From Escherichia coli (GTDB lineage Bacteria; Pseudomonadota; Gammaproteobacteria; Enterobacterales; Enterobacteriaceae): a DNA stretch of 64,000 nt. Position 1 is the stretch's first letter. Each line of letters begins with the position of its first letter. Positions 9,065-49,093 of this stretch are shown piece after piece. The notes beneath the pieces are model-generated. The model did no database searches. It was not told where the DNA came from and saw only the letters and a list, made by a program, of their open reading frames with translations. The stretch is from NCBI RefSeq assembly GCF_016026235.1, contig NZ_CP065613.1. One strand, 5' to 3'. Both the position numbers and the translations under genes were made by a program.

Positions 9065-9267
9065 TAGCTCTGACTTCTTCCGATTAAACATTTAGAGTGG
9101 TCATTAATCCACCACCATAACTTCATCTACTGCGGGATTTTTAACGCTGATGTAGATGAACAGTCAAGGCAGCGATCCTGCTGTGCGGCTCTGTATTATA
9201 TCTCTTTTTTAACCCAAAATTATAAAAAAAGTCCATAACCTGCCGCTTTGTATAATAAAAAAGCCCG

Positions 9268-9279
9268 GAGGATTTCTCC
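9268..9279. repeat. Target-site duplication (left) of the IS element: GAGGATTTCTCC
   Basis: Identical 12-mer directly abuts both ends of the element (also at 10572-10583). Confidence 0.75.
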
Positions 9280-10571
9280 TGAGGGATCCCCAGAAAATTT
9301 AGTAAACCATTATCATATTGGTATACCGTTGCTGTAGAACTTTCAGCCCTGCGTCAAGTGACAGTGTGTTTAGTATGAGTGGAGAATGTCGAATCACATT
9401 CTCCGCCAGTTTTAATAACGAGATGACTCGCCTGTGCTTCACTGTATTTGCCTGATATTTATGATGTATCCCTTTGTTTTCCAGGCTGAAACCGCTTAAC
9501 CACATAATGATACTGGCTAATGTTGCGATCAGACTCAATACCGTGACCCGCCCGGATGAATGACTGGCACCAAACCGTAGTCCAAATCCCCAGCGAGGAT
9601 TTTTTTCATCCCTGAAATTTTGCTCAATTTGCATTCTACGGCTGTATAATTTCATTACCTGTTTTGGCGAGAACTCAGTACTGTTTGTGAAAATAAACCA
9701 TGGTGATTTCCCGGCAGTACGAGCTTTAGCCGTCACCGATGGTCTGGTTGCTCTTTCCTTCGAGCGTTTAAATCTACGACCTTTAGGCTTACTTTTATAA
9801 AGATAAAAATGCCCTTCATGTTGTGCATTTTTATCTCGACCCAGCAGGCCTTCACCTAAATAAATTGCTGTCGTTGATGCTTTTGTGCCTGAGTCCGACA
9901 CCTTTTCCCAGCCATTACCAACATTGTAATAATGATTGCCCAGTACCCGGCAAATATAGGTCCAGCCACGGGAGCGGAGCTGTTGGAACCATCGCCCCTG
10001 AAAACCGGCATCTGTAATAACAATGACATCAGTCCCGGGGGAAAAGCACTCAGCAAGCGATTCCAGAAAACGCTCATGTACATCTGCATTCGCTGTCTGT
10101 GATGATGGAACGACACAACTCATCAACGGTAAAGAACGCCCGTCACATGCCAGGCTTGCCCGCAAAAGCTGAAAACGAGAGGCATGATAAGCACTCCAGT
10201 CAATGAGTATCACAACACGAGACATTCCCCGCGTAATCTTTTGGGTAATTCGCTGAAAAATGGTGGAAACCTCATTTTGCAAATGTCGATTCCCCAACAG
10301 TCGATCCACCCGCTTTATTTTGTTTTTAACTGATGCCGTACCGGTTAAATGACGCCCGATACTGGTAAGTGTGAGGGAAGCGCCATTTATTACAGCATTA
10401 GTTGCGTCAATCAGTGATTTTTGACGGTAAAGATGCAAAGGGGCCAGTATATTGTTAAGGAAATTTTGGCATAATGAACGTGCAGGCATAGTGGTGATCT
10501 CCTTGAAATTGTTAGCACAATCAATTAGATCACATCTCACTATGCCTGTCTTGTTTTCTGGGGATTCCTCA
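9280..10571 (-). mobile_element. IS4-family (IS10-like) insertion sequence, about 1.29 kb, apparently intact
   Basis: Terminal inverted repeats TGAGGGATCCCCAGAAAA (9280-9297) and TGAGGAATCCCCAGAAAA (reverse complement of 10554-10571), 17/18 match; single transposase ORF; flanked by 12-bp direct repeats. Confidence 0.85.
9299..10489 (-). CDS. DDE transposase, IS4 family (IS10-like)
   Basis: ORF 9299-10594 extends beyond the IS end, so start placed at internal MPARSL (10489) preceded by AAGGAG; motifs KIKRVDRLLGNRHL, ITDAGF, YSRRMQIEQNFRDEK, HKYQANTVKHRRV parallel the IS10 transposase as recalled. Confidence 0.85.
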   Translation of the reverse strand: MPARSLCQNFLNNILAPLHLYRQKSLIDATNAVINGASLTLTSIGRHLTGTASVKNKIKRVDRLLGNRHLQNEVSTIFQRITQKITRGMSRVVILIDWSAYHASRFQLLRASLACDGRSLPLMSCVVPSSQTANADVHERFLESLAECFSPGTDVIVITDAGFQGRWFQQLRSRGWTYICRVLGNHYYNVGNGWEKVSDSGTKASTTAIYLGEGLLGRDKNAQHEGHFYLYKSKPKGRRFKRSKERATRPSVTAKARTAGKSPWFIFTNSTEFSPKQVMKLYSRRMQIEQNFRDEKNPRWGFGLRFGASHSSGRVTVLSLIATLASIIMWLSGFSLENKGIHHKYQANTVKHRRVISLLKLAENVIRHSPLILNTLSLDAGLKVLQQRYTNMIMVY

Positions 10572-10583
10572 GAGGATTTCTCC
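10572..10583. repeat. Target-site duplication (right) of the IS element: GAGGATTTCTCC
   Basis: Identical to 9268-9279. Confidence 0.75.
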
Positions 10584-10616
10584 GGGGTTTGCATTGATTA
10601 GTTGATTTAAATCAGA

Positions 10617-12023
10617 TTAATCCAGCCATTCGGTATGGAACACACCTTCTTTATCAATGCGCTTATAAGTATGTGCACCGAAATAGTCACGCTGTGCCTG
10701 GATCAGGTTCGCAGGAAGAACAGCGGCGCGGTAGCTGTCATAATAGGCAACCGCAGCGGCGAAGGTCGGAACCGGGATACCGTTCTGTACCGCATAAGCG
10801 ACGACATCGCGCAGCGCCTGCTGGTAGTCATCGGCAATTTGCTTGAAATACGGAGCCAGCAGCAGGTTAGCGATCTGCGGATTTTCGGCATAAGCATCGG
10901 TGATTTTCTGCAGGAACTGCGCACGGATAATGCAGCCAGCACGGAAAATCTTCGCGATTTCGCCATAGTTCAGATCCCAGTTGTACTCTTCAGACGCAGC
11001 ACGCAACTGAGAGAAGCCCTGGGCGTAAGAAACGATTTTGCCCAGATACAGAGCACGACGAACTTTTTCGATGAACTCAGCCTTGTCGCCTGCTGGCTGC
11101 GCTTGCGGACCAGACAGTACTTTGGACGCGGCAACACGCTGCTCTTTCAGAGAAGAGATGTATCGTGCAAACACAGACTCGGTAATGAGCGACAGCGGTT
11201 CACCGAGATCTAGCGCGCTTTGGCTGGTCCATTTACCGGTACCTTTGTTAGCCGCTTCATCCAGAATCACATCAACCAGGTAGTTACCGTCTTCATCTTT
11301 TTTAGTGAAGATGTCTTTGGTGATGTCGATCAGGTAGCTGCTTAGTTCACCATTATTCCACTCGGTAAAGGTCTGCGCCAGTTCATCGTTGGTGAGGTTC
11401 AGGCCACCTTTAAGCAGAGAATAGGCTTCAGCAATCAGCTGCATATCTCCGTATTCAATACCGTTGTGAACCATCTTCACATAGTGACCTGCGCCATCGG
11501 CACCAATATAGGTAACACATGGCTCCCCATCTTCAGCCACTGCGGCGATTTTGGTCAGGATCGGTGCGACCAGTTCATAGGCTTCTTTCTGGCCACCAGG
11601 CATGATGGAAGGTCCTTTCAGCGCACCTTCTTCGCCACCAGAAACACCGCTACCGATAAAGTTAAAGCCTTCTGCAGACAGCTCACGGTTACGACGAATG
11701 GTGTCCAGGAAGAAAGTGTTACCACCATCAATGATGATGTCACCTTTATCGAGGTATGGCTTGAGAGAATCAATAGCAGCATCCGTGCCTGCACCTGCTT
11801 TCACCATTAACAGGATGCGACGAGGCGTTTCCAGAGATTCAACAAACTCTTTTATTGTATAGTAAGGAAATAACTTCTTATCCGAATGAGTAGCTATAAT
11901 TTTTTCTGTTTTTTCACGAGAACGGTTAAAAATTGAAACAGTATAGCCGTGACTTTCGATATTTAGTGCAAGATTACGCCCCATTACCGCCATACCGATA
12001 ACCCCAATCTGTTTTTTTGACAT
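10617..12023 (-). CDS. gnd: 6-phosphogluconate dehydrogenase (decarboxylating)
   Basis: ORF 10617-12029; start placed at [21 protein letters not shown]; ends ...GVFHTEWLD. Confidence 0.95.
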
Positions 12024-12874
12024 TTTCACTCCTATTTAATTAGCAGAATAATAAACGTATTGAAACACATATAAAAATATGTCATATGGAAAATATTGCA
12101 TTAAGACAAACAACAGATAATTGTATATGTAATTAAACTTATATTAAATTAATTACAGAAAATACTCAAAACTAACGTTGCTCTCCACACTCTAGTTTCC
12201 AGTGTCTCAGACTAACTATTATTAATAGTCTCCGCGATATATAAGAGATTTAACTGCCATGCCTCAAATATATCTTTCAACTCACTTACATTTTATAAAT
12301 TACAATAATCGAGAGTCAAATTATCAACCTCAAAATAATTTTGACAAACAACGAGGCTGTTGGTGTTTCCAGAATACTCAAATTGGTTCTATTCGTCATA
12401 TGTACTAAAACCTTAAAGCCAATGAAATATATCTTATCACAGTCATCTAATAACCATATGATAGCCACCAATGAATTTAGAAAAAATAAAACTTAAGACT
12501 GTTCCTGACTCTGAAATTTTATACAGCACAAATAATGCAATGAACTATTCTATACTTTTAAGTAAAATAAAGACAATCTTTATCATAATACTAAGTTCAT
12601 TCGCACCAATTAACCTCAGAATTCATTTCAATGATAACTAAAGGCTTTATAAAAATAATTCTTCAGGAGAGGCACTTGGTAAACATAATTTTACTAAATA
12701 GATTGCAGATTATAATCTGATACAAAAACATTAATCACACTTCTTGTCCACACAGACCCACATTTCCCTATTCTATTGAAATTCACTTAAAACTCATCCA
12801 TGACATCATCAAATATAAAAATACATTTGCAAATCAAAAGCATTATCCAATATTTCTTTATAAGATTTGCCGAA

Positions 12875-13678
12875 TTATCTCCAAGAGGCAAAGTGGCGCT
12901 TAAAAAACAAACACAGCGGATTTATATGATGTTTGGCAACAGCATTAACAGCATAGTGGGAGAAATAATAAAGAGATTTAAACAGACCAAACTTTAAATA
13001 TTTCCTGTAAAAGGCCCATTGTGAAAATATTATTTTTAATTTATTTGACGAGAGTGTATCGGTGCCTACTCGATAATAGGCCAGTGTTTCGTTCAAACAA
13101 TATGCATAATCAATTTTATCTAAAATGCTCAGCCATAGTGCCATGTCCTGTCTTTTCCTGATTGTTGGCATAAACATTTTACCAAGAGATGAAGTATCAT
13201 ATACAGCTGTCAAGCAACCTATTACATTAGTCTTTAATAATTCAGAATAATTAACTTTAGAAACAGGATTAATTTGGGATAAAAGTTTCCCGCTAAAACT
13301 AACCTTTTGATATGAGGTATAAGTGAAAGCATAATTATTTGAAAGCATAAAGTCTATCTGTTTTTTTATTTTCTCTTTATGCCAAAAATCATCACTATCT
13401 AAAAAAGCGATAAACCGACCTTTAGCTTTACTGATCGCTATATTTCTTGACATACCAGCCCCATAATTCTTCTCATTTGAAATGAGAACAACTCTTGAAT
13501 CTTTTTTTTGATATTCCCTGCAAATAGACACTGTATTATCTGACGAACAATCATCGACAATAATCATTTCTATATTATTATATGATTGAGATAGAACAGA
13601 ATCAATTGTACATCTAATCGTTCTTTCAGAATTATATGTGGGTGTTATGACTGAAACTAAATATTTATCGGTACTCAT
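12875..13678 (-). CDS. Glycosyltransferase, family 2 (last gene of O-antigen cluster)
   Basis: 267 aa; ITPTYNSERTI ... VDDCSSD ... FLDSDD motifs typical of GT-A fold GT2 enzymes; AT-rich. Confidence 0.8.
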   Translation of the reverse strand: MSTDKYLVSVITPTYNSERTIRCTIDSVLSQSYNNIEMIIVDDCSSDNTVSICREYQKKDSRVVLISNEKNYGAGMSRNIAISKAKGRFIAFLDSDDFWHKEKIKKQIDFMLSNNYAFTYTSYQKVSFSGKLLSQINPVSKVNYSELLKTNVIGCLTAVYDTSSLGKMFMPTIRKRQDMALWLSILDKIDYAYCLNETLAYYRVGTDTLSSNKLKIIFSQWAFYRKYLKFGLFKSLYYFSHYAVNAVAKHHINPLCLFFKRHFASWR

Positions 13679-13837
13679 AGAATCATCTCAAACTTACATA
13701 AGTTTCATTATATAATGTCATGTTTATCATATCCATCCTTGGTAGCTTATTAAGAAATTTCACATATTAAATATTTATCAAGTATTTCATTAACATCCCA
13801 CCTTAATATAAAAAGCCGTTAATTAAGAGAGTAACTA

Positions 13838-13937
13838 CAAAGCAAAGCAAAGCAAAGCAAAGCAAAGCAAAGCAAAGCAAAGCAAAGCAAAGCAAAGCAA
13901 AGCAAAGCAAAGCAAAGCAAAGCAAAGCAAAGCAAAG
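13838..13937. repeat. Pentanucleotide microsatellite (GCAAA)x20 on + strand, (TTTGC)x20 in the operon direction
   Basis: Perfect tandem array visible at 13838-13937, between gne (ends 13989) and the GT2 gene (starts 13678). Confidence 0.95.
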
Positions 13938-13988
13938 ATGGTTTTATAAAAATATTGACAGTGAATAAAATAGCACATTAAAATCGTC

Positions 13989-15002
13989 TTATTTATATCC
14001 TTTGGGATTGTTTTTTTGCCAACGCCAAGAATCAATTATCATTGTATCTAAATCATATCGAGAAGACCACCCTAATTCTAAAAATGCTAGAGATGGATCA
14101 GACCAACATTCAGCTATATCACCAACTCGACGAGGTTTGAAACAATAAGGGATATCAATTCCAGTACAACGTTTAAAGGTATTTATCACATCAAGAACTG
14201 AATAACCAACCCCTGTACCAAGATTATATACTTTATAATTTCCCCCAAAATTACGGTGTTCTAAAGCAGCTATGTGCCCTTCAGCCAAATCCATAACATG
14301 AATATAATCTCTAATGCCTGTTCCATCAGGTGTAGGATAATCATTTCCGAATACTGATAAATATTTTAGATTACCAATAGCCACTTGAGTAATATAAGGA
14401 ATTAAATTATTTGGAACACCATTAGGATCTTCGCCTAATAGACCAGAAGAGTGGGCTCCTACAGGATTGAAATAACGCAAAATAGTAATACGCATTGTTG
14501 GCTCAGCCAAAGCTATATCCTTCAAAACCCTCTCTACTATAAGTTTTGAAAAGCCATATGGATTAGTTGTTCCGCCAACGCTACTATCTTCCTTCAAAGG
14601 AATAGTTTCAGGCTTACCATACACTGTTGCGGAGGAGCTAAAAATAAAACTAATAACGCCAGCGCGCATCATTTCTTCAAGTAAAACAATAGTTCCGTTA
14701 ACATTGTGATCATAATATTCCAATGGATTTGAAACAGATTCAGCGACGGCTTTTAATCCTGCAAAATGAATAACATCTGTAATATCATGATACTGGAAAA
14801 TATGTTTGAGTTTTTTCCTATCACGCACATCACCATGATAAAATAGAGGCCTACGTCCACAAATTTTTTCGACCCTTTCTAACGACTTAGACGATGAGTT
14901 CGATAGATTATCCAACACCACCACATTTTTTCCGTATGATAATAAGGATAATACAGTATGTGAACCAATGTAACCTGCACCACCAGTAACCAAAATAGTC
15001 AT
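13989..15002 (-). CDS. gne: UDP-hexose 4-epimerase, GalE family (probably UDP-GlcNAc 4-epimerase Gne)
   Basis: 337 aa; LVTGGAGYIGSH ... HFAGLKAVAESV ... YxxxK context; GalE-family SDR inside an O-antigen cluster. Substrate (UDP-Glc versus UDP-GlcNAc) cannot be decided from sequence by eye. Confidence 0.8.
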   Translation of the reverse strand: MTILVTGGAGYIGSHTVLSLLSYGKNVVVLDNLSNSSSKSLERVEKICGRRPLFYHGDVRDRKKLKHIFQYHDITDVIHFAGLKAVAESVSNPLEYYDHNVNGTIVLLEEMMRAGVISFIFSSSATVYGKPETIPLKEDSSVGGTTNPYGFSKLIVERVLKDIALAEPTMRITILRYFNPVGAHSSGLLGEDPNGVPNNLIPYITQVAIGNLKYLSVFGNDYPTPDGTGIRDYIHVMDLAEGHIAALEHRNFGGNYKVYNLGTGVGYSVLDVINTFKRCTGIDIPYCFKPRRVGDIAECWSDPSLAFLELGWSSRYDLDTMIIDSWRWQKNNPKGYK

Positions 15003-15348
15003 AAAACTCCTTATATTTCATCTATCTGCCTAGGATATAAAACAAGAATATAAACACATTATAAATAGTATAAACTGTGAAAGAATAAAAATTTAGAATA
15101 GTTAAGCCCAATGTTACTATAAAAATACAATATGCAAGTATACGTTATTTTTCTAAACATCTCGACATATTGTATGAGTCTAACACTATATTGCATTTTT
15201 TTCGTGTAAATTATGTTCTAGTGGTGTCAGTAATTCGAGCAATTTATGAGGCCTTTTATTCTTGTACAGTATGCAATATTGAGCCTGTTTATGATTGACA
15301 TATTCAGATTTTCAAAGAGCAATTCTTCATTAAACTCAATAAACGGCT

Positions 15349-15634
15349 ATCTCAGTGATCGGTTAAAGCGCTCACAGATGGTGTTCATTTTCGGCGTATC
15401 GAGATAAGCCTATTGGTGCCTGATAGCGGCTTCCTGTAGCTTTTTGTCAAATTTTCCCAGGAACTCTTCCCCATAATCGGGTATATTCTGGTTGATTCCA
15501 ACAGGTAACAACCGAGCTTGATGGCAGAAGAAACTCATGATTACATCACTGTTAAGCGACGTTACCGCCACCGCCAAAGCGTAGTTGCTGCGTTCGTCAA
15601 TCACGGTAATAACATAACGCCGATTCTGAGCTCA
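15349..15634 (-). pseudogene. Remnant of an rve-type (integrase-core DDE) transposase gene, frameshifted and truncated
   Basis: Minus-strand frames give ...RRYVITVIDERSNYALAVAV... (VIDxxSR-like first catalytic-D region) and, in another frame, ...PKMNTICERFNRSLR* (xERFNRxL C-terminal integrase-core motif); local G+C looks higher than the surrounding cluster. Confidence 0.45.
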
Positions 15635-15944
15635 ATATAAGCTCACCGGTCTTTAGCGGGCTAATAGTACCTTGGACTTGAAGTCTGGGAACCCAGTTAC
15701 ACCAGTATTAGCCACATTTTATCATGTGCTGCCTAGCTCATTCCTCCAATAGTGGAGACGCTCGGGCAGGCCAAATGCTACTGTTCACACTACAGATTCA
15801 GACGGTCAAAAATCTGTTCTTTTCCAAGGTTGAGAAGTCCTATTCTAATTCATCATATTTCTTTCAAAATTTCTGGATGTCATAGTTTTGTAAGACATAC
15901 TAGAAAGATTTACTACTTGAGATAAGCACTTCCGAGCCTATATA

Positions 15945-16307
15945 TTAAACGCGTATTGATACACAAAAATTTTCTGCGGATGCATTGATTCCATGTCTTT
16001 CCCTAAAATGCAGGGTTTTCATTCTTAATTTTGCAATATCAGGCATGGCATTGTATTCCATCGCATAGATTGTTGCACGGTAATGCCCGAAACACCTGAC
16101 GCCGATATGTTGGTTCAACATAACAATCTCTCCTTTCTTATCTGGAGACAATTGCAACATCTCTGAAAACTTACACTCTGCCCATCGTGTACATAACCAA
16201 AGACAACAGAAATATGTCACGCCTTTTTCCAAATTCCAATTTATATTCCTTACTCTTATAACACAAGGAGTATCTGAATATATAAGAGTGAAGGAGTGCT
16301 TTGGCAA
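15945..16307 (-). CDS. Hypothetical protein or gene fragment of unknown function
   Basis: 120-aa ORF in the decayed segment between gne and wzy; no recognisable motifs; may be a remnant. Confidence 0.25.
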   Translation of the reverse strand: MPKHSFTLIYSDTPCVIRVRNINWNLEKGVTYFCCLWLCTRWAECKFSEMLQLSPDKKGEIVMLNQHIGVRCFGHYRATIYAMEYNAMPDIAKLRMKTLHFRERHGINASAENFCVSIRV

Positions 16308-16752
16308 AAATATTTAATTCAAAGATATAAAACACAATCGATTTAGTATCAAAAGATTACTCAGTAATCTTTCACCAAATAAATTAGTTCAAAATAACAC
16401 TACAGCAATGGCAATAAAACCATTCCATGAAATAGCAACATAAACACGCAAATAGAATTTCCACGTAAATTTATAACACTTACCAATCCAAAACATTATT
16501 TATTATAGATTGTATTCATGGGATTATCACCTGGTTCAGTTATAGATTTGTGATCTATGTAGTTCACTATTCTTACAGTTCTCAAAAAACTTAAATTAAA
16601 TTGTTGCGCTATTACCCTATAGTCTTTAAATACCCATAAAAACAAAGGCAAAAACCAATTTGTTTTACAGATATCTAGAATAAGATAATATGTCAACAAT
16701 TAACAAGTTACTACTATTGTTTGTTAATAAAAACCTGCAATTAAAATAATAA

Positions 16753-18015
16753 TCATGCATTAACCGAACCCCTTCTTATTAATCTTTTTTTATGACAAAT
16801 ATAAAAAGATGAAAATATATATATATATATTATTTTCATATATGCAACATTCAAAAATATAACCTCGCCTTTATAATGAAAAGAAAAACTGAGTATCGTA
16901 ATCATTAATACAACTATTTTAGGTTTGATGCTATTAGCAGCATAAATAGTCAAAAAAATAAAAAATAAAAAATAAAAAATAACCGATGGTACCGCACCCA
17001 AAAATAATGCTAACCGCATAAATCCAGCATCGGTCCCGAGATAATATGTCCCATCCTTTAACGTATAGTACCCATCACCAATGAAGATCTGTTTTTCTGT
17101 TAACGGAAAATACATATTAAATAATGCATCTGTAGATGTTGTTGATAACTTTCCTGAATCTAAATAATAATATAACATTTGAAAAGAATAATCCGAATAT
17201 TTTTTCAAGATATCATAAACATGTTCATTTAAAAAAAATCTCCAAAAAATAAATAAAAACAGAGATACATAAATCAAAATTTGAAGCGCCCGATAAAACT
17301 TCTTTTTATAATCAGAGCAAATAAAACTATATACCCCTCCGAGGACAAACCCCAAAACAGCCGTACGCCCAGCAGAAATTGACGCGAACAGCAAGAGTAT
17401 GATAAAAAATAATTTAAAAAAGAAAGGAATATTACAGTCTTCCTCATTAAACCAAACAATTGAAAGAAAAGATAATAATGACATAATTATAGCAAGACCA
17501 AAGGCAACAGAACCTGATATACCTAATCCCCTGATGCCTCCATATGTATTACTCATAAATTCTATTTCTTCTTTTGTTCTAATAATACTTTGAATATAAG
17601 CATTTATACTGGGAAAAAACATCATCAGAATAATAAAAAAGGATTGTAAGAGGGCAATTAGAAAAAACAATTTCAACACATTATCATTGTTATGCTGGAT
17701 TAAGTGCGACGCAATTATAACAGAGCTGAATAATGCAGCGAAATTATTAAAGATAACCCCCATGATAGATAAATCTCCTGTACCATTTAATACCAATGAA
17801 ATACAAGAAAAAAAGAGCATGCAGGCCAAAGACAAAAACGCAATAAAAAATATTCTTGTACTTATTAGACTAAAAAAAACAGTCCTTATCCTGATATTTG
17901 TAATTAAATAAATCAAGGAGAAAATATATATAAGATAGCCTGAATTAAAAAAAACAGGGATGCTAAAAGCAAACACAAATAAAAACAACAAAAATACATC
18001 AAAAAAAACCTTCAT
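16753..18015 (-). CDS. wzy: O-antigen polymerase
   Basis: 420 aa, highly hydrophobic multi-TM protein with a larger hydrophilic loop, adjacent to glycosyltransferases and wzx; identity as Wzy is by elimination (the other polytopic protein has the Wzx pattern). Confidence 0.7.
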   Translation of the reverse strand: MKVFFDVFLLFLFVFAFSIPVFFNSGYLIYIFSLIYLITNIRIRTVFFSLISTRIFFIAFLSLACMLFFSCISLVLNGTGDLSIMGVIFNNFAALFSSVIIASHLIQHNNDNVLKLFFLIALLQSFFIILMMFFPSINAYIQSIIRTKEEIEFMSNTYGGIRGLGISGSVAFGLAIIMSLLSFLSIVWFNEEDCNIPFFFKLFFIILLLFASISAGRTAVLGFVLGGVYSFICSDYKKKFYRALQILIYVSLFLFIFWRFFLNEHVYDILKKYSDYSFQMLYYYLDSGKLSTTSTDALFNMYFPLTEKQIFIGDGYYTLKDGTYYLGTDAGFMRLALFLGAVPSVIFYFLFFIFLTIYAANSIKPKIVVLMITILSFSFHYKGEVIFLNVAYMKIIYIYIFSSFYICHKKRLIRRGSVNA

Positions 18016-19127
18016 AAAAATTCCTTTTGTGACACGACCCGATAATAAATATCAACCATACGCTTTGTGTTTTTATTTATATCAAACATTTTTATTATTG
18101 TATCTCGGTTATATTCAATCGAACACCTATATTGATTACTATCTATTAATTTCACACACCTTGAAAAAACAGATTTCATGTCAATATCATCATGCAGATT
18201 CAAATACATTGCATGATTTCCTAATAGCTCTCTGTTTGCATCGATGTCTGATACTATCGGAAAACAATTACATAAAACGCCCTCCATTAAAGATAATGGA
18301 GCACCATCATTGCTAGGAATACTAAGAACAAAATCAGATTTATGAAGAATCGACCTTAATTCCTCTTTTTGAATAAACCCTATTAAATTTACTTTATAAT
18401 TATCTCCCTCACATTTTTTTGTGAGTTCTATTATCTTATCATGTGTGGTCTTTGACGATGAGCGGCCTAGTATATTGATATTAAAAAAGTACCCTTTACA
18501 ATCATAATCTTTCATATCAATAACAGCTTCTAAAAAGGACTCTATGTTATAAATATTATCCCAATTTCTTACAGAAGTTATTGTTATACATTTATCGTCC
18601 CTTATGCTTGACGTTTTTTCATCTGAAAAGAACCCCACATCTACACCATATTGAAAAGTATGTATTCGCTCCTGATTCACATTGAAATACGATATTATTT
18701 TATTTGTTATATGCTTGGCGGGTGAATTTACAACACAAAAACTTTTCATTGCTTTTACATATATTTTTCCTAATATCCCTCTCTTTTTTATAGTATTGTT
18801 AATGTCACTTCCCCATACTGAGAGTATCTTCTTTACTTTTCTAGGCAAAACACATGAAATTAAACCATAAGAACTAAAAAAATGGACATGAACCAACTCA
18901 GGCTTTAATAAAAAAAAATAAAAAAGAAGAAAAACAGGTGCGTATATAAAATCAAATTTAGTTTTTGTAAGTCTTGGTATCTTATATATCTCTCCTATTC
19001 CAACATTCTCAGAAATACTTTTGTCATAGTGTAGTGTGACAATTCTATAATCAATATATTCTTTGGAACCATGAATCCAGTTACTAATATGACCAGATAT
19101 CATAGGGCCAAAAACAAGTACTCTCAT
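18012..19127 (-). CDS. Glycosyltransferase, GT-B fold (GT4 / family 1 type)
   Basis: 371 aa; C-terminal E-x7-E-like region ...LSLMEGVLCNCFPIVSD...; overlaps neighbours by 4 bp. Confidence 0.75.
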   Translation of the reverse strand: MRVLVFGPMISGHISNWIHGSKEYIDYRIVTLHYDKSISENVGIGEIYKIPRLTKTKFDFIYAPVFLLFYFFLLKPELVHVHFFSSYGLISCVLPRKVKKILSVWGSDINNTIKKRGILGKIYVKAMKSFCVVNSPAKHITNKIISYFNVNQERIHTFQYGVDVGFFSDEKTSSIRDDKCITITSVRNWDNIYNIESFLEAVIDMKDYDCKGYFFNINILGRSSSKTTHDKIIELTKKCEGDNYKVNLIGFIQKEELRSILHKSDFVLSIPSNDGAPLSLMEGVLCNCFPIVSDIDANRELLGNHAMYLNLHDDIDMKSVFSRCVKLIDSNQYRCSIEYNRDTIIKMFDINKNTKRMVDIYYRVVSQKEFL

Positions 19128-20017
19128 TTTTTCCCCATTCGTTTTCTTAAATTTAAATAATAATTTTTAGCATGGAGTGGAGACAACCACCCAATACATT
19201 TCCCCACAATATTGTGCTTGATTTTTATTGATTCAATGACAGAGAATAAAAAAAACTCAACTGAAAAGTTGGTTGCATTAAATAAATGAATAGGTGCAAC
19301 TTCATTTTTTCTGAAAAATTTAGATAAAATAGTCTTGTTTTTTATTTGGATAAACTTCTTACAACTGCCAATTGAGCCATGCCTTATCCTATAAAATAAA
19401 ACCACGTCATCTATATTCCTTACAATACATCCACTCAATACAGCCCTACACAAAAAATCATAATCTTGAGCAGCATCTAAACGCCTGTAACCACCTAATT
19501 TATAATAAAGCTCTGACCTTAACAACCAAGTTGGATGAATTATTTCATTCCCCCACGAAAAATCTACTGGGTTCATATTAAAATAATCCCTAACAACATT
19601 ATCGTTCTCATCAATAACAACAGCCTGTCCACCGACTAAACTGACATCAGAATGCTTATTCAGATATTCTAATTGCTTTTTAAAACGCCCGTTAATAACA
19701 ATATCATCAGCATCCATTCTGGCAATAAAATCATAGCCATTACACGCGCCAAAAATTAATTTATTTAAACTTGCCGCCAACCCTTCGTTCTCATTAAAAA
19801 AAACAACGCACACATCATTTCTGGCACTAACTTCTTTTAAATATAAACTCTCAACATGAGGAATATCTTCATTTCTCCTATCGACTCCAATTATTAATTT
19901 ATATTTCACATTCTTCTTTTCCAATCTTTCCAGATCCTGAAGAGTACTGTCTACTGCCTTTTTTAGTATTATGTAACTCTCATTATAGTAAGTCATGATT
20001 ACAGCAAGTTTTTGCAT
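19124..20017 (-). CDS. Glycosyltransferase, family 2
   Basis: ORF 19124-20143; start placed at internal MQKLAVIMTYYNE (typical GT2 N-terminus); DAD/DxD-like motif RMDADD. Confidence 0.75.
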   Translation of the reverse strand: MQKLAVIMTYYNESYIILKKAVDSTLQDLERLEKKNVKYKLIIGVDRRNEDIPHVESLYLKEVSARNDVCVVFFNENEGLAASLNKLIFGACNGYDFIARMDADDIVINGRFKKQLEYLNKHSDVSLVGGQAVVIDENDNVVRDYFNMNPVDFSWGNEIIHPTWLLRSELYYKLGGYRRLDAAQDYDFLCRAVLSGCIVRNIDDVVLFYRIRHGSIGSCKKFIQIKNKTILSKFFRKNEVAPIHLFNATNFSVEFFLFSVIESIKIKHNIVGKCIGWLSPLHAKNYYLNLRKRMGKK

Positions 20018-21204
20018 TTCAAATCCCACAGACAACAAATTGTAATAATAATTGGCGATAGAACTACAGCATATACTATATAATAATATGGGAATAATGA
20101 AGAAAATAAAAAAATAGATATTAACGATAATACATTCGAACAAATCACATATTTTACTATATTTTTTGATGAGTGTATCATATGAATTAATTGAGTTAAA
20201 TATTGATTGAGTATACTTGGGATAACAGCTAGGCTAAATGAAAATATTAGAAAAATAAAAAAACGAGATATTTCTCCCTTTGTCAAATAAATAGAGATAT
20301 ATGATATTGCAGCCACACATATAAAAACAACGATGCTGTAAAACAACAATTTGAGTAGCTGACTTCTGTATTTTACTTCCACATAGTTAGTTTTGTGCCC
20401 TACGGAATAAAAAACCTCTGAATTACATTTATTTAAGACAGTGATAATTGAATTGGAAAATGTTACGGATACTGTCACAAATCGCATAACGACGTTATAT
20501 ATCCCTAACAAGCTAGCATTTCCTGATGCCAATATAGCAGAATTAATTATAGGCTGAATAAGTGCATTTACCCCGCTATATATGTACATATGCTTAATGT
20601 TTTTCAAATAATTTTTAATGTGTCTAAATGATATTTTTCCCAACCTATTATCATTCTTTATTTTTATCAAACTAATAAGTCCAACCAGAGCAGATGCTAT
20701 CGCCTGAATAAAAATAAACATGTGTAATTCAAAAGCATAATATAAAACAAATAAAACCGCTAAAATTTTAACTACCAAGGACACTATTATTATAAACCTA
20801 AAGTTATCCTTTGCTATATAGTACCAACTATTAAGCATGCCAAATCCAAACGAGAATATTACGACACAAAAATAATCACTCTTCCCTGCAGTCTCTGAAA
20901 TTATAATAAACACCATCGCACATACAAAAAAAAACACTAACTTAAAGAAAATCGCTGAAATAACAAACGACTGCTGAGCAATTTCATTACCCTTAAGCTT
21001 ATTTAATTGTTGTACGCCTACTGTATTTAGACAAGCATCATAAATAAATGAAATAAAAGTTGATATAGTTAACACATACGAATAAACTCCATATCCCTCT
21101 AAATTAAATCTAGTTAAAACCAGCGGCATAATTATTATTGGGACAATATAATCCACTAGCTTTAGAGCACTTACAGAGATAATACTTCTTAAAAAACTAG
21201 ACAT
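19999..21204 (-). CDS. wzx: O-antigen flippase
   Basis: 401 aa, about 12 predicted TM segments, polysaccharide-transporter-family N-terminus. Confidence 0.75.
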   Translation of the reverse strand: MSSFLRSIISVSALKLVDYIVPIIIMPLVLTRFNLEGYGVYSYVLTISTFISFIYDACLNTVGVQQLNKLKGNEIAQQSFVISAIFFKLVFFFVCAMVFIIISETAGKSDYFCVVIFSFGFGMLNSWYYIAKDNFRFIIIVSLVVKILAVLFVLYYAFELHMFIFIQAIASALVGLISLIKIKNDNRLGKISFRHIKNYLKNIKHMYIYSGVNALIQPIINSAILASGNASLLGIYNVVMRFVTVSVTFSNSIITVLNKCNSEVFYSVGHKTNYVEVKYRSQLLKLLFYSIVVFICVAAISYISIYLTKGEISRFFIFLIFSFSLAVIPSILNQYLTQLIHMIHSSKNIVKYVICSNVLSLISIFLFSSLFPYYYIVYAVVLSPIIITICCLWDLKCKNLL

Positions 21205-21643
21205 CTTTTATTTTTCTAGCCGGTTGCCCAACATATACACCTGGTTCCTCTAAGTTTTTTGTAACTATCGCTCCGGCACCAACAATAATATTACTACAGA
21301 TCTCCACTCCCGGTAAAACAATTGCTCCAGCACCTAACTGAACATTATCTTTTATTACTACCTTATCTTTTTTATATTTAAAGATTTTCTTTTCAAATAC
21401 CAAACCTGTACTGAGAATTTTACTACCAGCAGACAGTACTACATTATGGCCTAAAATGACTCCTCCACTAGCATTTATATACACAAAATCATTAATTGAA
21501 AAGGAATTACCGAATTTAAGATTCGATGGTTCTACTATCTTATAAGGACCATAAATATGGGATTGCTTATAACGTTTTACTCCAAACTCACAGATAAAAC
21601 ATAATTTATACCATATTAATTGAATTCTAGAGAATATGCTCAT
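21197..21643 (-). CDS. Hexapeptide-repeat O-acetyltransferase
   Basis: 148 aa; left-handed beta-helix hexapeptide repeats (GHNVVLSAGSKI... GAGAIVLPGVEI... GAGAIVTKNL). Confidence 0.8.
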   Translation of the reverse strand: MSIFSRIQLIWYKLCFICEFGVKRYKQSHIYGPYKIVEPSNLKFGNSFSINDFVYINASGGVILGHNVVLSAGSKILSTGLVFEKKIFKYKKDKVVIKDNVQLGAGAIVLPGVEICSNIIVGAGAIVTKNLEEPGVYVGQPARKIKDV

Positions 21644-22557
21644 AGCTTTAACTCCTTTCCGAGCCTTTCATCCCATTCAAATGGAGTTATCTTATCATAC
21701 CCCGATCCTTGATGAAATGTTAATTCGCCTACATATATTTTTTCTTGAACAAGATATAAATCAACCCTAAGATATTTGAAACCTTGACTTAGTTTTTTAG
21801 ATATATTTAGAGCGTTTTCTAACTGACTTGGTTTACTAATATTCTTCACATTAAATTTTGAAAGATCTTTTCCCCTTCTCGCCCAGCAAAAATCTAACAT
21901 ATTCCAACTAGTATCATATATAGAACGATAATTCCCTCCCTCACGATCTAACGACACATAAATAAATTTCGGTTCTCCATTAAAACAATGAATTTTTATA
22001 TCATTAGGAACTTTCCCTGCCTCATCCTCTAATAACCTTTCAACAATTATACGCCTATCAATATTTTTATATTGCCATTCTCTTCCGTGATGGTAAATAT
22101 TACAATTAAGTGTTCTAATAAATTTCCACTTAACCTCATCAATATTCAATAAATTCTTGTCTCTAACAATAAAATAATCGCCACAATAGTGGTTCGATTT
22201 TATAACAAACTTACCCTGTGGTAAAGACTCAAAGGTAATATCAAAAGGGGTATCATAAACCTTTAACAAATCAATTATATTATCTCTCGTTCCCAGCCTA
22301 TTTTCCACATATTCTCGCACTCTAATTTTATCAGCACATATTGTATGTAATAGTGTTCTGTCATTTAGTTTCAACCATTGTAACTTTTGATTTAATGTCT
22401 TCGGATTGTTCAATCCGAGAGGGTATCCCTGATATTCAAGAAACTGCTTTTTTATAATCAAGCTATCTGGAGTAATCAGAACGACAAAGCATTTCAATAA
22501 ATACTTTATATTATACAATATATACATCAATTTCATGGAAAGATTTTTTCTATTCAT
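21640..22557 (-). CDS. TupA-like ATP-grasp protein (predicted amide ligase acting on a sugar carboxylate)
   Basis: 305 aa; NPKTLNQKLQWLKL motif and overall layout recalled as characteristic of the TupA-like ATP-grasp family. Confidence 0.65.
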   Translation of the reverse strand: MNRKNLSMKLMYILYNIKYLLKCFVVLITPDSLIIKKQFLEYQGYPLGLNNPKTLNQKLQWLKLNDRTLLHTICADKIRVREYVENRLGTRDNIIDLLKVYDTPFDITFESLPQGKFVIKSNHYCGDYFIVRDKNLLNIDEVKWKFIRTLNCNIYHHGREWQYKNIDRRIIVERLLEDEAGKVPNDIKIHCFNGEPKFIYVSLDREGGNYRSIYDTSWNMLDFCWARRGKDLSKFNVKNISKPSQLENALNISKKLSQGFKYLRVDLYLVQEKIYVGELTFHQGSGYDKITPFEWDERLGKELKL

Positions 22558-23237
22558 ATTAGAATCTCAAATAATTTATGCTGTCTTACCCATTCTCTTG
22601 CCTGACCTTTCGATACTACTACCCCAACGTTGCTCATTTTTAATATTGGTAAATCGCTAATAGAATCAGAGTAAGTTGTTATATGATACTCAGAAACATC
22701 TAACGACAAAACACCTTTTAACATTAATACTTTATTATATCCCATGCAATTCTTGCCACTAATTCTCCCTAAACACCTGCCTCTATTATCAAATTTAATT
22801 TTTGTGCATACAAAGCCATTAATCTCTAATGCTTTAACTAAATATTGAATATAAATATCATAGCCTCCAGAAATAATAATAACCTCATCTCCATCTTTTA
22901 AATGCTTATTCAATATCTTAATTATGGCAGGATTAATTCTGCGCAATATAATTTCATTAACGTAATCACGAGCCATTACATTAAGAATATCCCTTTCAAT
23001 ATTTTTTAACATATACAATAAAATTCTTTTCCTTAAGCTTTCCCCCAATCTTATTTTATTTATTATTTGTTCGATTTTGAAAATGGATAATGAAGATGCC
23101 ACCCTATTTAAAGTCTGTATTTTGATGTTATTACATATCCCCAAACGATCTATTACATAGTATATAAACCCATCGCCAGTTTGAAAATCAACTAAGGTTT
23201 CACACAGATCAAATAATGCTATCTTTTTTAACTTCAT
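22554..23237 (-). CDS. HAD-superfamily phosphatase (subfamily IB-like)
   Basis: 227 aa; N-terminal motif I variant FDLCETL, ISGG, C-terminal YSDSISDLP acidic motif. Confidence 0.7.
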   Translation of the reverse strand: MKLKKIALFDLCETLVDFQTGDGFIYYVIDRLGICNNIKIQTLNRVASSLSIFKIEQIINKIRLGESLRKRILLYMLKNIERDILNVMARDYVNEIILRRINPAIIKILNKHLKDGDEVIIISGGYDIYIQYLVKALEINGFVCTKIKFDNRGRCLGRISGKNCMGYNKVLMLKGVLSLDVSEYHITTYSDSISDLPILKMSNVGVVVSKGQAREWVRQHKLFEILI

Positions 23238-24315
23238 ACATCTGCTCTAAAATTCTGATTACATACAACATTTGTTTTTTCGTTCCAATAGTAATTCTGA
23301 CACATAACTCGACCTCTTTCATATGAGATAAATCACGAACAAATATTAAATTAGATTTTAAACGTTCAATGAATGCTTTTTTATCATTCATCGATTTAAA
23401 CTCAATAACCAAAAAGTTCCCCTCTCCATATACAATATTTTTTTGACCTATATTTATATTTTTCAACTTATCATAAAAAAAACGCTTAGCCTGATTAACT
23501 TCCTTAACATAATTATTCATATATTCAACTTCGTCTAATGCATTCAAAGCGGCAATCTGACTTAGCTGAGGTATATTTTTTGCATTTCTGACTTTATTTA
23601 TTGCACCTAACAAATCTTGTGACGCTATTATATATCCCATTCGCATCCCTGCCAATGAAAATGCTTTGGAAAATGTTCGCGTAATAATTATGTTATTAAA
23701 GGAGTTTACAAAATCAGCACACGTTAATTTTGCAAATTCATAATAGGCTTCATCGATAATAAAATATATTCCTTTATATTTTTCTACAAGATAATGTATA
23801 TCTCCTTTAGGAATAAGAGTACCTGTAGGATTATTTGGGTTACATAAATAGGCCATTTGAGGTTGAAACTTATTGAGATCGCTTTCAAACTTCTTTAATG
23901 ACCAATAGTAATTATCTTCAAAAATTGAATAACAAATTGTTGCCCCTTGAGCTTCACCTGTTGTTCTGAAATTATCATACGTAGGTGCTAACATCAATAT
24001 TTTATCATTTTCATTAATTAATGTACGAATGATAGACTCGTGTGCTGAGTCTGAACTACAAAAATATTGGATATATTCCTTTGGCACCCCCACATAGTTT
24101 GATATCTTTATTATTAAATCTTTATTGCTCACATCTGGATAATACCTAATTAGATTATTTACCAACGAATTCATTAATGCATTTTTTACTCTTTCTGGCG
24201 GTTCAATAGTAGATTCGTTCCAATCTAATTTTAATATTGTTTCTTTATTTTCACTCTCCCATATAGCGTGGGATGCAAGTTTATATGGTTTCATTTTTTT
24301 TACGAACTTATTCAA
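23209..24315 (-). CDS. HisC-family PLP-dependent enzyme (aminotransferase or decarboxylase acting on a phosphorylated substrate); first gene of the O-antigen operon
   Basis: 368 aa; motif-for-motif parallel with the hisC in this window (CNPNNPTG vs CSPNNPTG; IDEAYYEF vs ADEAYIEF; TRTFSKAFSLAGMRMGY vs [16 protein letters not shown]; VRITIGT vs LRITVGT) but highly diverged and AT-rich. Confidence 0.8.
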   Translation of the reverse strand: MNKFVKKMKPYKLASHAIWESENKETILKLDWNESTIEPPERVKNALMNSLVNNLIRYYPDVSNKDLIIKISNYVGVPKEYIQYFCSSDSAHESIIRTLINENDKILMLAPTYDNFRTTGEAQGATICYSIFEDNYYWSLKKFESDLNKFQPQMAYLCNPNNPTGTLIPKGDIHYLVEKYKGIYFIIDEAYYEFAKLTCADFVNSFNNIIITRTFSKAFSLAGMRMGYIIASQDLLGAINKVRNAKNIPQLSQIAALNALDEVEYMNNYVKEVNQAKRFFYDKLKNINIGQKNIVYGEGNFLVIEFKSMNDKKAFIERLKSNLIFVRDLSHMKEVELCVRITIGTKKQMLYVIRILEQMYEVKKDSII

Positions 24316-24800
24316 TTTTTACTCCATTACGTTCTGTGCATAACATTTAAAGAATTTAAACATGCTCAAGAAAACACAATATCTTATCTTAGATAATTTT
24401 CAGAATTGCTCCTATGTTTCATAATTCGTATATAAGCCCATACATTTATTTTATTCTTAATATAATCTCGTGAAGAATAATCGACATATTGTGTCAAAAA
24501 AAATATATATCTATTCCACATACTGAATATCTTCACTAACTTCTGCAAATTGAGAGCATAAGTAATCAGACACAGAATATTCAATATATTATACTTTCCA
24601 TGCTTGTCTGTAGTCAGAAATATAGAGACACCTTATTAAATCTTTAAGTTTTATCTTACTCTTTTTGTATATATACTGAGTATTTGGACATTTATAATAT
24701 ATAAAATAATAGCGTTTGATGTTAAGGAAAATCTCCATTATTGAATATTTATCGCCAATTGTTTAGTAAAAAATCAGTGCCACATGTTTTCTCTTATATG

Positions 24801-24839
24801 CACGCTACCGCCCCTGGCTTTACAGCTACCAGAGCACTG
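24801..24839 (-). promoter_or_regulatory. 39-bp JUMPStart element with ops (GGCGGTAGCGTG) antitermination site upstream of the O-antigen operon
   Basis: + strand reads cacgctaccgcccctggctttacagctaccagagcactg, the reverse complement of the JUMPStart consensus as recalled; ops 12-mer at 24801-24812. Confidence 0.85.
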
Positions 24840-25097
24840 CATGCATGCCTACGATGTGACGAGCGTTACCCACTCGCGCTAAACCCGAAAAATTCAAACG
24901 CTAATTGTCTTACCAATCCGCTCTGGAAACAAGGAAAATCCTGGAAAACTTTGACGAAAATCCTATTGCTAACTCTTTGTTATTCTGATTGTTTATATAA
25001 AACAACGGCAGGAATATTCGCAACAAATTACCTTCGCCGCAAATCTTCACAGCCGTTATAATTTTCTTATCAACCGTTACATCCGGTCAGATTTTCA

Positions 25098-25991
25098 TTA
25101 TTCGCTTAACAGCTTCTCAATACCTTTACGGAACTTCGCCCCTTCTTTTAGGTTACGCAGTCCATACTTCACAAACGCCTGCATATAGCCCATTTTTTTA
25201 CCGCAGTCGTAGCTGTGACCTGTCATCAGCATGGCATCAACGGACTGTTTTTTCGCCAATTCGGCAATGGCATCAGTCAGCTGAATACGCCCCCATGCAC
25301 CTGGCTGAGTGCGTTCAAGTTCCGGCCAAATATCGGCAGAAAGCACATAGCGACCAACGGCCATGATGTCTGAGTCCAGCGTCTGCGGCTGATCCGGTTT
25401 TTCGATAAATTCGCCGATGCGGCTGACTTTACCTTCACGATCCAGTGGTTCTTTGGTCTGAATGACGGAGTATTCAGAGAGGTCACCCGGCATACGTTTT
25501 GCCAGCACCTGGCTGCGGCCCGTTTCGTTGAAGCGCGCAATCATGGCAGCAAGGTTGTAGCGTAGCGGATCGGCGCTGGCGTCATCGATAACAACGTCTG
25601 GCAGTACCACGACAAATGGATTGTCACCAATGGCAGGTCGTGCACATAAAATGGAGTGGCCCAAACCTAAAGGTTCGCCCTGACGCACGTTCATAATAGT
25701 CACGCCCGGCGGGCAAATGGACTGTACTTCCGCCAGCAGTTGACGCTTCACGCGCTGCTCAAGGAGAGATTCTAATTCATAAGAGGTGTCGAAGTGGTTT
25801 TCGACCGCGTTCTTGGACGCGTGAGTTACCAGGAGGATTTCTTTGATCCCTGCAGCCACAATCTCGTCAACAATGTACTGAATCATTGGCTTATCGACGA
25901 TCGGTAGCATCTCTTTGGGAATCGCCTTAGTGGCAGGCAACATATGCATCCCAAGACCCGCTACAGGAATAACTGCTTTTAAATTCGTCAT
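25098..25991 (-). CDS. galF: UTP-glucose-1-phosphate uridylyltransferase paralogue (regulatory subunit)
   Basis: ORF 25098-26003; start placed at [30 protein letters not shown]. Confidence 0.93.
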
Positions 25992-26165
25992 TATTTCATC
26001 CACCTGTAAAATGGTTGCTGAATTATAGCTTGTTCGATTTTTTTCGCCAGCATCAATTACCCTGAATTGATTACTGAATTACTTATGATGTTACGCCGCT
26101 TCGTTGTGGATTGCAGTAGCATTGTTCCTAAGTATGGCTCCATTTTTCCAGGAATGGTCGCAAAT

Positions 26166-33067: not shown

Positions 33068-34438
33068 TTACTCGTTCAGCAACGTCAGCAGAGTTCGCGT
33101 TCGCGCTTCCATCAGCGGCACATCACCGCGTGATTCCACATTCAGGCGCACCACCGGTTCGGTGTTGGAGGAGCGCAGATTAAAGCGCCAGTCGGCAAAG
33201 GTCATGCTGATGCCATCGGTACGATCCACCGCCAGCGCCTCGCGGCTAAAGTGCTGTTCCACGCGGTTAATCGCCTCAACGGGTTGTGCCAGTTTGCTGT
33301 TGATCTCACCGCTTGCCGGAAACGCTGACATCCGGTCGCACACCAGTTCGCCCAGCGTTTTTCCTTTCAGGCACACCAGTTCGGCGACCAGCAGCCACGG
33401 GATCATGCCGCTGTCGCAGTAAGCGAAATCACGGAAGTAATGGTGGGCGCTCATTTCGCCACCGTAGATAGCGTCTTCCTTGCGCATACGTTCTTTAATA
33501 AAGGCGTGTCCGGTTTTCGACATTACCGGGGTGCCGCCTGCGGCAGTCACCACATCAACGGTGTTCCAGGAGAGACGTGGATCGTGGATGATCTTCGCGC
33601 CGGGATTTTTTTCGAGGAACGCTTCTGCCAGCAGGCCGACAATGTAGTAGCCCTCAATAAACTGCCCTTTTTCGTCAAACAGGAAACAGCGGTCAAAATC
33701 GCCATCAAAGGCAATGCCCATATCCGCGCCGTGTTTAATGACCGCATTGCGGGTATCGTCGCGACATTCCGGCAGCAACGGGTTAGGAATACCGTTGGGG
33801 AAATTGCCGTCCGGCGTGTTATGCACTTTGATCAATTCCACCGGTGCGCCGAGGGCTTTAAAGCGGGCTTCAATGGCGTCCACCACCGGACCCGCCGCGC
33901 CGTTCCCGGAGTTAATCACCAGCTTGAGCGGCGTGAGGTTTTTGACGTTGATATAACCGAACAGGTGATCAACGTATGCATCACGCAGGTTGATTTGCTG
34001 ATAGCAACCGCGTTTGGTTTCATCGACGGGAGGAAAGTCGTTGGCTTCTGCCAGACGCTGGACGTCGCGCAGTCCGGTATCGCCGCTGATCGGGCGAGCC
34101 CCTTCGCGCACCAGTTTCATGCCGTTGTAATCCATCGGGTTATGGCTGGCGGTAACTTCAATGCCGCCATCCACGCCAAGATGGAACGTGGCGAAATAGA
34201 TTTCTTCGGTGCCGGACATACCAATATCCAGCACGTCGACGCCCGCATCCTGTAAACCTTTTGCCAGCGCCAGTTTTAAGGTTTCGCTGGTGAGGCGGAC
34301 ATCACCGCCTAACACAATGGTTTTCGGTTTGAGAAATTCGCCATAAGCGCGACCAATGCGCCAGGCAATATCTTCATTCAGTTCTTCGCCTAATTTCCCG
34401 CGAATATCATAGGCTTTAAAGCAGGTTAATTTTTTCAT
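33068..34438 (-). CDS. cpsG: Phosphomannomutase
   Basis: ORF 33068-34486; start placed at [17 protein letters not shown]; phosphohexomutase active-site TASHNP. Confidence 0.93.
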
Positions 34439-34494
34439 ATCGTTACCCTTTTTCAGGCAATAGTTGGCCCTGACCGAAGCGGCCAATTTTATTT

Positions 34495-47736: not shown

Positions 47737-48876
47737 TTACCAGTTATGAATGTCGCTGGCTGTATCCGTCATGTAACGGACACCGCTAATAGTTGGCAGC
47801 AACTGATTGATCAGACGGTTCCAGCGGGAAACCGGGGCGGTGGTGACATACACCACGTCATAAGGTTGCAGGCGGAATTCTGTCGCCATCACCAGCGACG
47901 TGGCATCGGACATATCCAGCTGGTAGATATTGGCAATCTTGCCATTACGCCCGCCCTCGCCTTTCAGCGGACGAATGACAAAGATGCCGCTGGCGTTGGA
48001 GGTGGTCATGTCGATACCTTCAGCATTGCCCAGAGCTTCAGTCAGGGTCATGCCGCTAAAGTCCATTTTCAGGGTGCTCTGTTTCTTCACTTCACCCATC
48101 ACAAATACTTTCAGATCATCATTACGGGGCACGTAGAGAATATCGCCGGGATAAAGCAGTCGGTTCTGATTGAGGTCGCCGTTTTGCATCAGCGCCTGTA
48201 AAGAAATGCGTTCTTCACGACCATTGTGTGTTAGCACTACGTTGCGCCAGTCAGCGGTGTCGGTCAGGCCACCTGCGGCGTTGATGGCGTCGAGAATAGT
48301 CAGTGGCACGTTGGTGATCGCCTGTTGACCGGATTTATTCACCTGACCGGAGATATAGGCCTTTTGTGAGCGGAAGGCGGCGATATTAACGTCCACCTGC
48401 GGGTCAGCGATGTACGTCGCTAAGCGCCCGGTAATATCACTGCGGATTTCAGCGAGCGTTTTCCCGACTACGTGAACCTTGCCGATATACGGGTAAAACA
48501 TAGTGCCGTCAGGCTGTACCCAGTTGCCGGTGTCGCTGGAGCTGCGGTACTGACCGGCTGGCGTGGTGAGTTCCGGGTGATCCCAGACGGTGACATTAAG
48601 AACGTCCCCCGGCCCGACGCGATACTGGTAATTCGCGATCTCGCTTTCCAGCGTCATATTGGGGCGCGCTACATTCGGGCGTGGGCGTAATTGGTCAATC
48701 AGGCGCGGGGTCAGCGGATAAACATTCACCATTTTGTCGAGATCGAAATCAGCGTCCTGCTGTTTGATGACGTCTTTGCCCATCGTCGACATATTGCTGC
48801 CCGGAAGTACTGTGCAACCGCTTATCAAGGTTACTGACACCAATAATGGCATCAATTTCATTTTGGATTTCATCAT
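47737..48876 (-). CDS. wza: Outer-membrane polysaccharide export lipoprotein
   Basis: 379 aa; lipoprotein signal with LISGC lipobox; first gene of the cps operon. Confidence 0.95.
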
Positions 48877-49054: not shown

Positions 49055-49093
49055 CACGCTACCGCCCCTGGCTTTTTAGCTACCAATACACTG
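49055..49093 (-). promoter_or_regulatory. JUMPStart-like element with ops site upstream of wza
   Basis: + strand cacgctaccgcccctggctttttagctaccaatacactg; same ops 12-mer (reverse complement) at 49055-49066; lies in the wza leader. Confidence 0.8.

Follow-up and report, generated by a model that had tools for sequence, protein, structure and literature searches.

The 39-bp sequence CAGTGCTCTGGTAGCTGTAAAGCCAGGGGCGGTAGCGTG, located between galF and the first O-antigen gene, is the JUMPStart of an O143-type O-antigen operon of Escherichia coli, and its last 12 bases, the ops sequence, are predicted with high confidence to load RfaH for transcription of the distal genes. The sequence lies in a 64-kb stretch of DNA that was analysed as a whole (the window), and the features discussed are collected in Table 1. 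Sequence identity, strand, position, operon layout and composition were established directly.

Table 1. Features of the O143-type O-antigen operon and its galF flank, in the order in which the minus strand reads.
Feature	Coordinates	Strand	Remarks
galF	25098-26003	-	NTP_transferase; PGAP GalF
galF terminator-like long hairpin, then U tract	24995-25059 (about)	-	directly after galF stop codon
Candidate sigma-70 promoter TTGTTT-17-GACAAT	24904-24932	-	weak consensus; inferred
39-bp JUMPStart element	24801-24839	-	exact match; RF01707, 60 bits; K-12 identity
5-bp stem-loop of the Rfam model, CUGGU / GCCAG	24814-24832	-	cmscan structure line; 5/5 pairs standard or G-U
ops 12-mer, GGCGGTAGCGTG	24801-24812	-	last 12 bases of the JUMPStart 39-mer
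Untranslated leader, ops to first gene	24316-24800	-	485 nt, 26% GC; sense-strand ORFs all ≤66 aa
Decayed 5′ end of ISAs1/ISEc1 (H-repeat) element	24479-24773	-	alignment to intact ISEc1
PLP-dependent aminotransferase (HisC-like), first gene	23209-24315	-	TIGR01141, 262 bits, below cutoff; PGAP name
HAD-IB hydrolase, ATP-grasp ligase, hexapeptide acyltransferase, wzx, two glycosyltransferases, wzy	16753-23237	-	
wzy	16753-18015	-	intact 420-aa ORF
1750-bp segment without intact gene	15003-16752	-	between wzy and gne
IS481-family transposase pseudogene	about 15186-16121	- (operon strand)	frameshifted
gne/galE-type UDP-hexose 4-epimerase	13989-15002	-	NF007956, 460 bits; TIGR01179, 443 bits
Last glycosyltransferase (GT2, TuaG-like)	12875-13678	-	NF047683, 293.6 bits, below cutoff; PGAP "glycosyltransferase family 2"

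The JUMPStart element and its ops sequence

The 39-mer occurs a single time in the window, on the minus strand and with 0 mismatches, and no other site was found for it even with up to 3 mismatches allowed. A scan of the whole window with the Rfam model RF01707 (JUMPstart) recovered the same 39 positions at full length, scoring 60.0 bits (gathering score 35; E 2.6e-11), and 100 dinucleotide-preserving shuffles gave zero matches to the 39-mer, even at ≤3 mismatches. On both grounds a chance match was rejected. The initial annotation had read an exact JUMPStart on the reverse strand and proposed alignment with published JUMPStart sequences as a check; both the search and the alignment bear it out, since the element is identical to the JUMPStart of E. 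coli K-12 MG1655 and 30 of 30 bases of the published JUMPSTART long-PCR primer match it (PMC4384082). Among 5426 complete E. coli genomes, 2178 carry the 39-mer at ≥99% identity. Hobbs and Reeves reportedly described JUMPStart in 1994 as a 39-bp conserved sequence with two GGTAGC repeats, and both copies of the repeat are present at 24801-24839. The element lies 3′ of galF and 5′ of the first O-antigen gene, on the same strand. By every sequence-level criterion tested it is a member of the JUMPStart/ops family. Such elements have already been described for E. coli O-antigen clusters (PMC4732683, PMC4384082), and this one is no departure from known biology. A 106-aa plus-strand ORF overlapping it (24741-25061) runs antisense through the conserved non-coding spacer and was treated as spurious.

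The ops 12-mer was correctly placed within JUMPStart by the initial annotation and equals the "ops12" oligo used by Zuber et al. (2018) in their structural work on RfaH:ops (PMC5995543). It has the 12-nt form GGCGGTAGnnTG, with T6 and with TG at positions 11-12; exact comparison revealed no mismatch to the ops consensus, the observation that was said to count against the assignment. Just two sites in the 64 kb fit the ops pattern GGCGGTAGNNTG, the second being in the wza leader, and the same search of the window found no second ops inside the O143-type operon. G1, T11 and G12 agree with a consensus pause sequence (G at -10, Y at -1, G at +1) that ops exemplifies (PMC5995543). Its 5′ to 3′ direction is that of the minus strand, the non-template strand and the coding strand of all cluster genes, and RfaH recruitment requires ops on precisely this strand (PMC9765446). 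That ops recruits RfaH for antitermination, as had been stated, is established: RNA polymerase pauses at ops, a small non-template hairpin forms there and flips out T6, RfaH binds and excludes NusG, and the polymerase so modified, which can recruit a ribosome, withstands both pausing and Rho-dependent termination (PMC5995543; PMC9765446).

Could JUMPStart act mainly as leader RNA, its stem-loop binding a factor or controlling stability or processing, rather than through the ops DNA? In Rfam the family does belong to the cis-regulatory RNAs and its model includes a 5-bp stem, a conserved stem-loop among these elements was reported by Weinberg et al. (PMC2864571), and the stem is intact here. 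Against this, the 121-nt region around JUMPStart folds no better than its shuffles (z -1.16; 27/200 as good), the stem having weak thermodynamic support in its context, and structural and genetic work shows that it is the non-template DNA hairpin of ops that RfaH recognises (PMC5995543). We consider a mainly RNA-level role very unlikely; the stem may still contribute alongside ops and RfaH, the two readings being compatible. Given the folding result, no extended leader structure is claimed.

In an alignment that includes K-12, the serogroups are homologous up to the last G of ops and lose homology from the very next base, exactly where the element itself ends on its 3′ side. This is what would be expected if the 39-mer were kept merely as part of the conserved galF flank, the recombination junction of cluster exchange, and had no regulatory role in this strain. 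Upstream of wza, though, in an unrelated flank, a further copy shares the 21-nt 3′ part, and for the identical K-12 element a function is on record: PMC2864571 cites Wang et al. (1998) for an O-antigen cluster that is RfaH-dependent through JUMPStart. A purely passive junction is, in our judgement, extremely improbable, and a regulatory JUMPStart is the reading that we retain.

The second JUMPStart of the window (49055-49093, minus strand; RF01707, 57.3 bits) is the leader element of the colanic acid operon, 178 nt from wza (47737-48876). It shares with the O-antigen copy the ops 12-mer, the stem-loop and the Rfam family, and differs from it at 5 positions of the 5′ half. Rcs controls the wza operon. 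An algC RNA motif within the colanic acid cluster (RF02929; 34443-34492, minus strand; 76.6 bits, gathering score 33.8) stands immediately upstream of an ORF (33068-34486) that, from its position in the cluster, is probably the phosphomannomutase gene cpsG/manB.

The galF spacer and the probable start of transcription

Directly after galF, the predicted hairpin at 24995-25059 has a folding energy of -27.4 kcal/mol (z -4.3), and 0 of 200 shuffles were as stable. Such a strong terminator-like structure suggests that galF transcripts end there and that the operon has a promoter of its own in the roughly 160 bp before JUMPStart. The spacer between this hairpin and JUMPStart is almost invariant among the four sequences aligned (K-12, the window and two other serogroups). 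It is here, past the galF terminator, that transcription of the operon most likely begins, proceeding leftwards. Marolda and Valvano are said to have mapped, in 1998, a 173-nt leader in the O7 cluster, and it is on this basis that the candidate sigma-70 promoter was placed at 24904-24932. Its hexamers are weak, and a consensus promoter scan of 11900-25200 did not list it. The same scan returned 85 promoter-like sites, against 77.9 ± 9.8 in shuffles, and 3 terminator-like sites, against 4.8; neither count is above chance, and such numbers support no claim of internal promoters or intrinsic terminators in this interval. Two promoter-like hexamer pairs located 3′ of ops (24725-24696 and 24617-24588, 10/12 matches) could yield ops-independent transcripts.

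In the K-12 galF-rfbB spacer, genomic SELEX pointed to the hexamers TTCACA-18-TGGAAT, downstream of JUMPStart (PMC3946193). These hexamers cannot be transferred to the present operon, as the K-12-specific sequence is absent from the window. The K-12 rfb (O16) cluster is a close reference: the 39-mer is identical, the upstream 260-bp spacer is nearly so, and strand and place with respect to galF are the same, whereas the downstream genes are unrelated and the first of them begins 75 nt after ops in K-12 and 485 nt after it in the window.

The ops site is non-coding and downstream of the galF terminator-like hairpin, with the weak candidate promoter upstream of it. In the uropathogenic strain CFT073, RfaH is loaded in vivo at non-coding leaders, and ops-like sites within coding regions are unbound; the ChIP signal begins at the leader ops of wzx, wza, rfa, hly and kps (PMC9765446).

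Insertion-sequence scars in the leader and before gne

Why is the leader of this operon so long? The initial annotation had put JUMPStart about 490 bp upstream of the first O-antigen gene, which agrees with the 485 nt that intervene between ops and a TTG codon at 24315 (505 nt to the first ATG). The gene most likely starts at this TTG: a GGAG Shine-Dalgarno sequence precedes it by 6 nt, the alignment to the HisC model begins at residue 3, and in four O143 genomes PGAP has chosen the same codon. In a spread sample of 10 genomes carrying the JUMPStart element, the distance from JUMPStart to the first annotated gene was 47-110 nt in nine; in the remaining one it was about 1390 nt, filled by an ISAs1 pseudogene. 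The length found here, and its difference from K-12, can be attributed to an ISAs1 remnant between ops and the first gene, a scar that the initial annotation had missed. Positions 24479-24773 align with the left end and the first ~60 codons of an intact ISEc1 (213/310 identities, 69%; E 1e-25), and the relic SDYRQAWKV corresponds to PDYRQAWKV of the transposase N-terminus, the start codon having been lost. Against ISAs1 copies, the segment gave matches of 67-70% in 4911 genomes. Because just the first 295 bp are present, interrupted by stops and lacking a right end, the alignment identifies a remnant and not an element.

ISAs1 beside JUMPStart is recurrent. Clusters unrelated to O143 in 226 of 5426 complete E. 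coli genomes share a junction of another type, in which the insertion sequence begins 7-11 nt after ops. The clusters of strains such as CP131_Sichuan, Z1323CEC0003 and TUM12357 resemble the present one: the left end of an ISAs1-family element begins no more than about 25 nt beyond ops, and the biosynthetic genes start far downstream. They differ from it in carrying a near full-length ISAs1 pseudogene, leaders of 1367-1455 nt and a different junction sequence, the O143 copy having been reduced to 295 bp at 69% identity. In CFT073 start codons follow ops by 40-67 nt in wzx, kps and rfa but by about 600 nt in hly, and in the long hly leader RNA polymerase drops immediately when RfaH is lacking (PMC9765446). 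With its ops followed by a long untranslated leader, the O143-type operon resembles hlyCABD in this one respect, although operon and flank are different. It is conceivable, if unlikely, that the site just 3′ of ops is a favoured target of the ISAs1 family and that long leaders (485 nt here, ~1.4 kb elsewhere) make such operons unusually RfaH-dependent, as for hly; the idea of a favoured target comes from the 226 genomes sharing one junction and the O143 type having a different, older one.

A second scar lies between wzy and gne. What had been described as a decayed segment of 1.75 kb measures exactly 1750 bp (15003-16752) and contains no intact ORF. An IS481-family pseudogene within this gap had escaped the initial annotation, and a stretch of 630 bp with 25-34% GC (16122-16752) separates it from wzy. 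A scan for C-rich, G-poor 78-nt windows (C>G) marked 16263-16344 and 15162-15432, both within the 1750-bp segment. These are the places where an uncoupled polymerase would meet Rho, although the scan is a heuristic and not evidence of termination. The two scars are kept in all four complete O143-type genomes of the collection, at 99.5-99.7% identity, so the layout is common to the O143 type.

A further, IS4-like element, ISEc60 (9259-10592), is inserted between gnd and ugd. It carries a 431-aa DDE transposase ORF on the minus strand (9299-10594) and 37-nt imperfect inverted repeats (9261-9297 and 10554-10590), and is lacking at the gnd-ugd position of the O143 strain STLEFF_47. In the same strain wzy is annotated as frameshifted, while the copy in the window is intact.

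RfaH and the distal genes of the O143-type operon

The cluster is 99.5-99.7% identical over 12.4 kb to those of four complete E. coli genomes, whose wzx and wzy genes, between galF and gnd, are named "O143 family" by PGAP. The operon extends over 12.8 kb with a GC content of 28-36% throughout, and gnd follows the last glycosyltransferase gene in minus-strand order, after an 845-bp non-coding gap of 28% GC (12030-12874). The first three genes (21640-24315, minus strand), for a HisC-like aminotransferase, a HAD-IB phosphatase and an ATP-grasp amidoligase, look like a pathway in which a small amino alcohol is made and amide-linked to a uronic acid. A 2-amino-1,3-propanediol substituent, which we take to be part of the O143 O unit, would fit these three genes; no terms for an amino-propanediol pathway appear in a review of E. 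coli O antigens (PMC7685785).

GlcNAc has been assigned as the initial sugar because gne is present in the O143 cluster, and the cluster has one glycosyltransferase more than expected (PMC7685785). Reaching gne matters for the first of these reasons; the need for the last glycosyltransferase is less certain than that for gne. Both genes do lie beyond the 1750-bp segment, as the initial annotation had said. Its further statement, that the operon must be transcribed through this segment to reach them, is too strong in its "must", since internal promoters may exist. On the operon strand, promoter-like sites with a TATAAT hexamer are found at 16530-16502 (GTGATA-17-TATAAT), in the AT-rich IS scar, and at 13735-13707 (TGGATA-17-TATAAT). 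If such sites expressed most of gne and the last glycosyltransferase, ops and RfaH would not be what delivers polymerase to them. Several observations make this unlikely: promoter-like sites are no more numerous than chance provides, AT-rich sites of this kind are typically silenced by H-NS, and RfaH stays with the polymerase through whole transcription units in CFT073 (PMC9765446).

We favour delivery by RfaH. The CFT073 operons bound by RfaH are all coated by H-NS/StpA, and RfaH counter-silences such DNA (PMC9765446); with its 28-36% GC, the present operon is of this type. RNA polymerase would pause at T11/G12 of ops, and the exposed non-template GGCGGTAGCGTG would form the small hairpin recognised by RfaH. 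RfaH would then replace NusG, and the modified polymerase is expected to resist pausing, Rho-dependent termination and H-NS/StpA roadblocks. In this way it could cross the 485-nt leader with its IS scar, the eight AT-rich genes that follow and the 1750-bp IS481 scar, and reach gne and the last glycosyltransferase. In this scheme we infer the transcription start site, the loading of RfaH in this strain and the dependence of the distal genes on it. The rfaH gene itself is located outside the window.

O143 is a serologically defined O antigen, so clusters of this type would be expressed. With this element the 5′ boundary of the O143-type O-antigen operon, and the point at which its regulation enters, can be annotated. 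The copy is genuine, exact and unremarkable, and has little significance beyond that use. What is slightly unusual is the amount of untranslated, IS-derived RNA that has to be crossed, 485 nt of leader and a further 1750 nt ahead of gne. The strain is predicted to need RfaH for expressing its O antigen, and the cluster would be a convenient natural test case for the suppression of polarity by RfaH.
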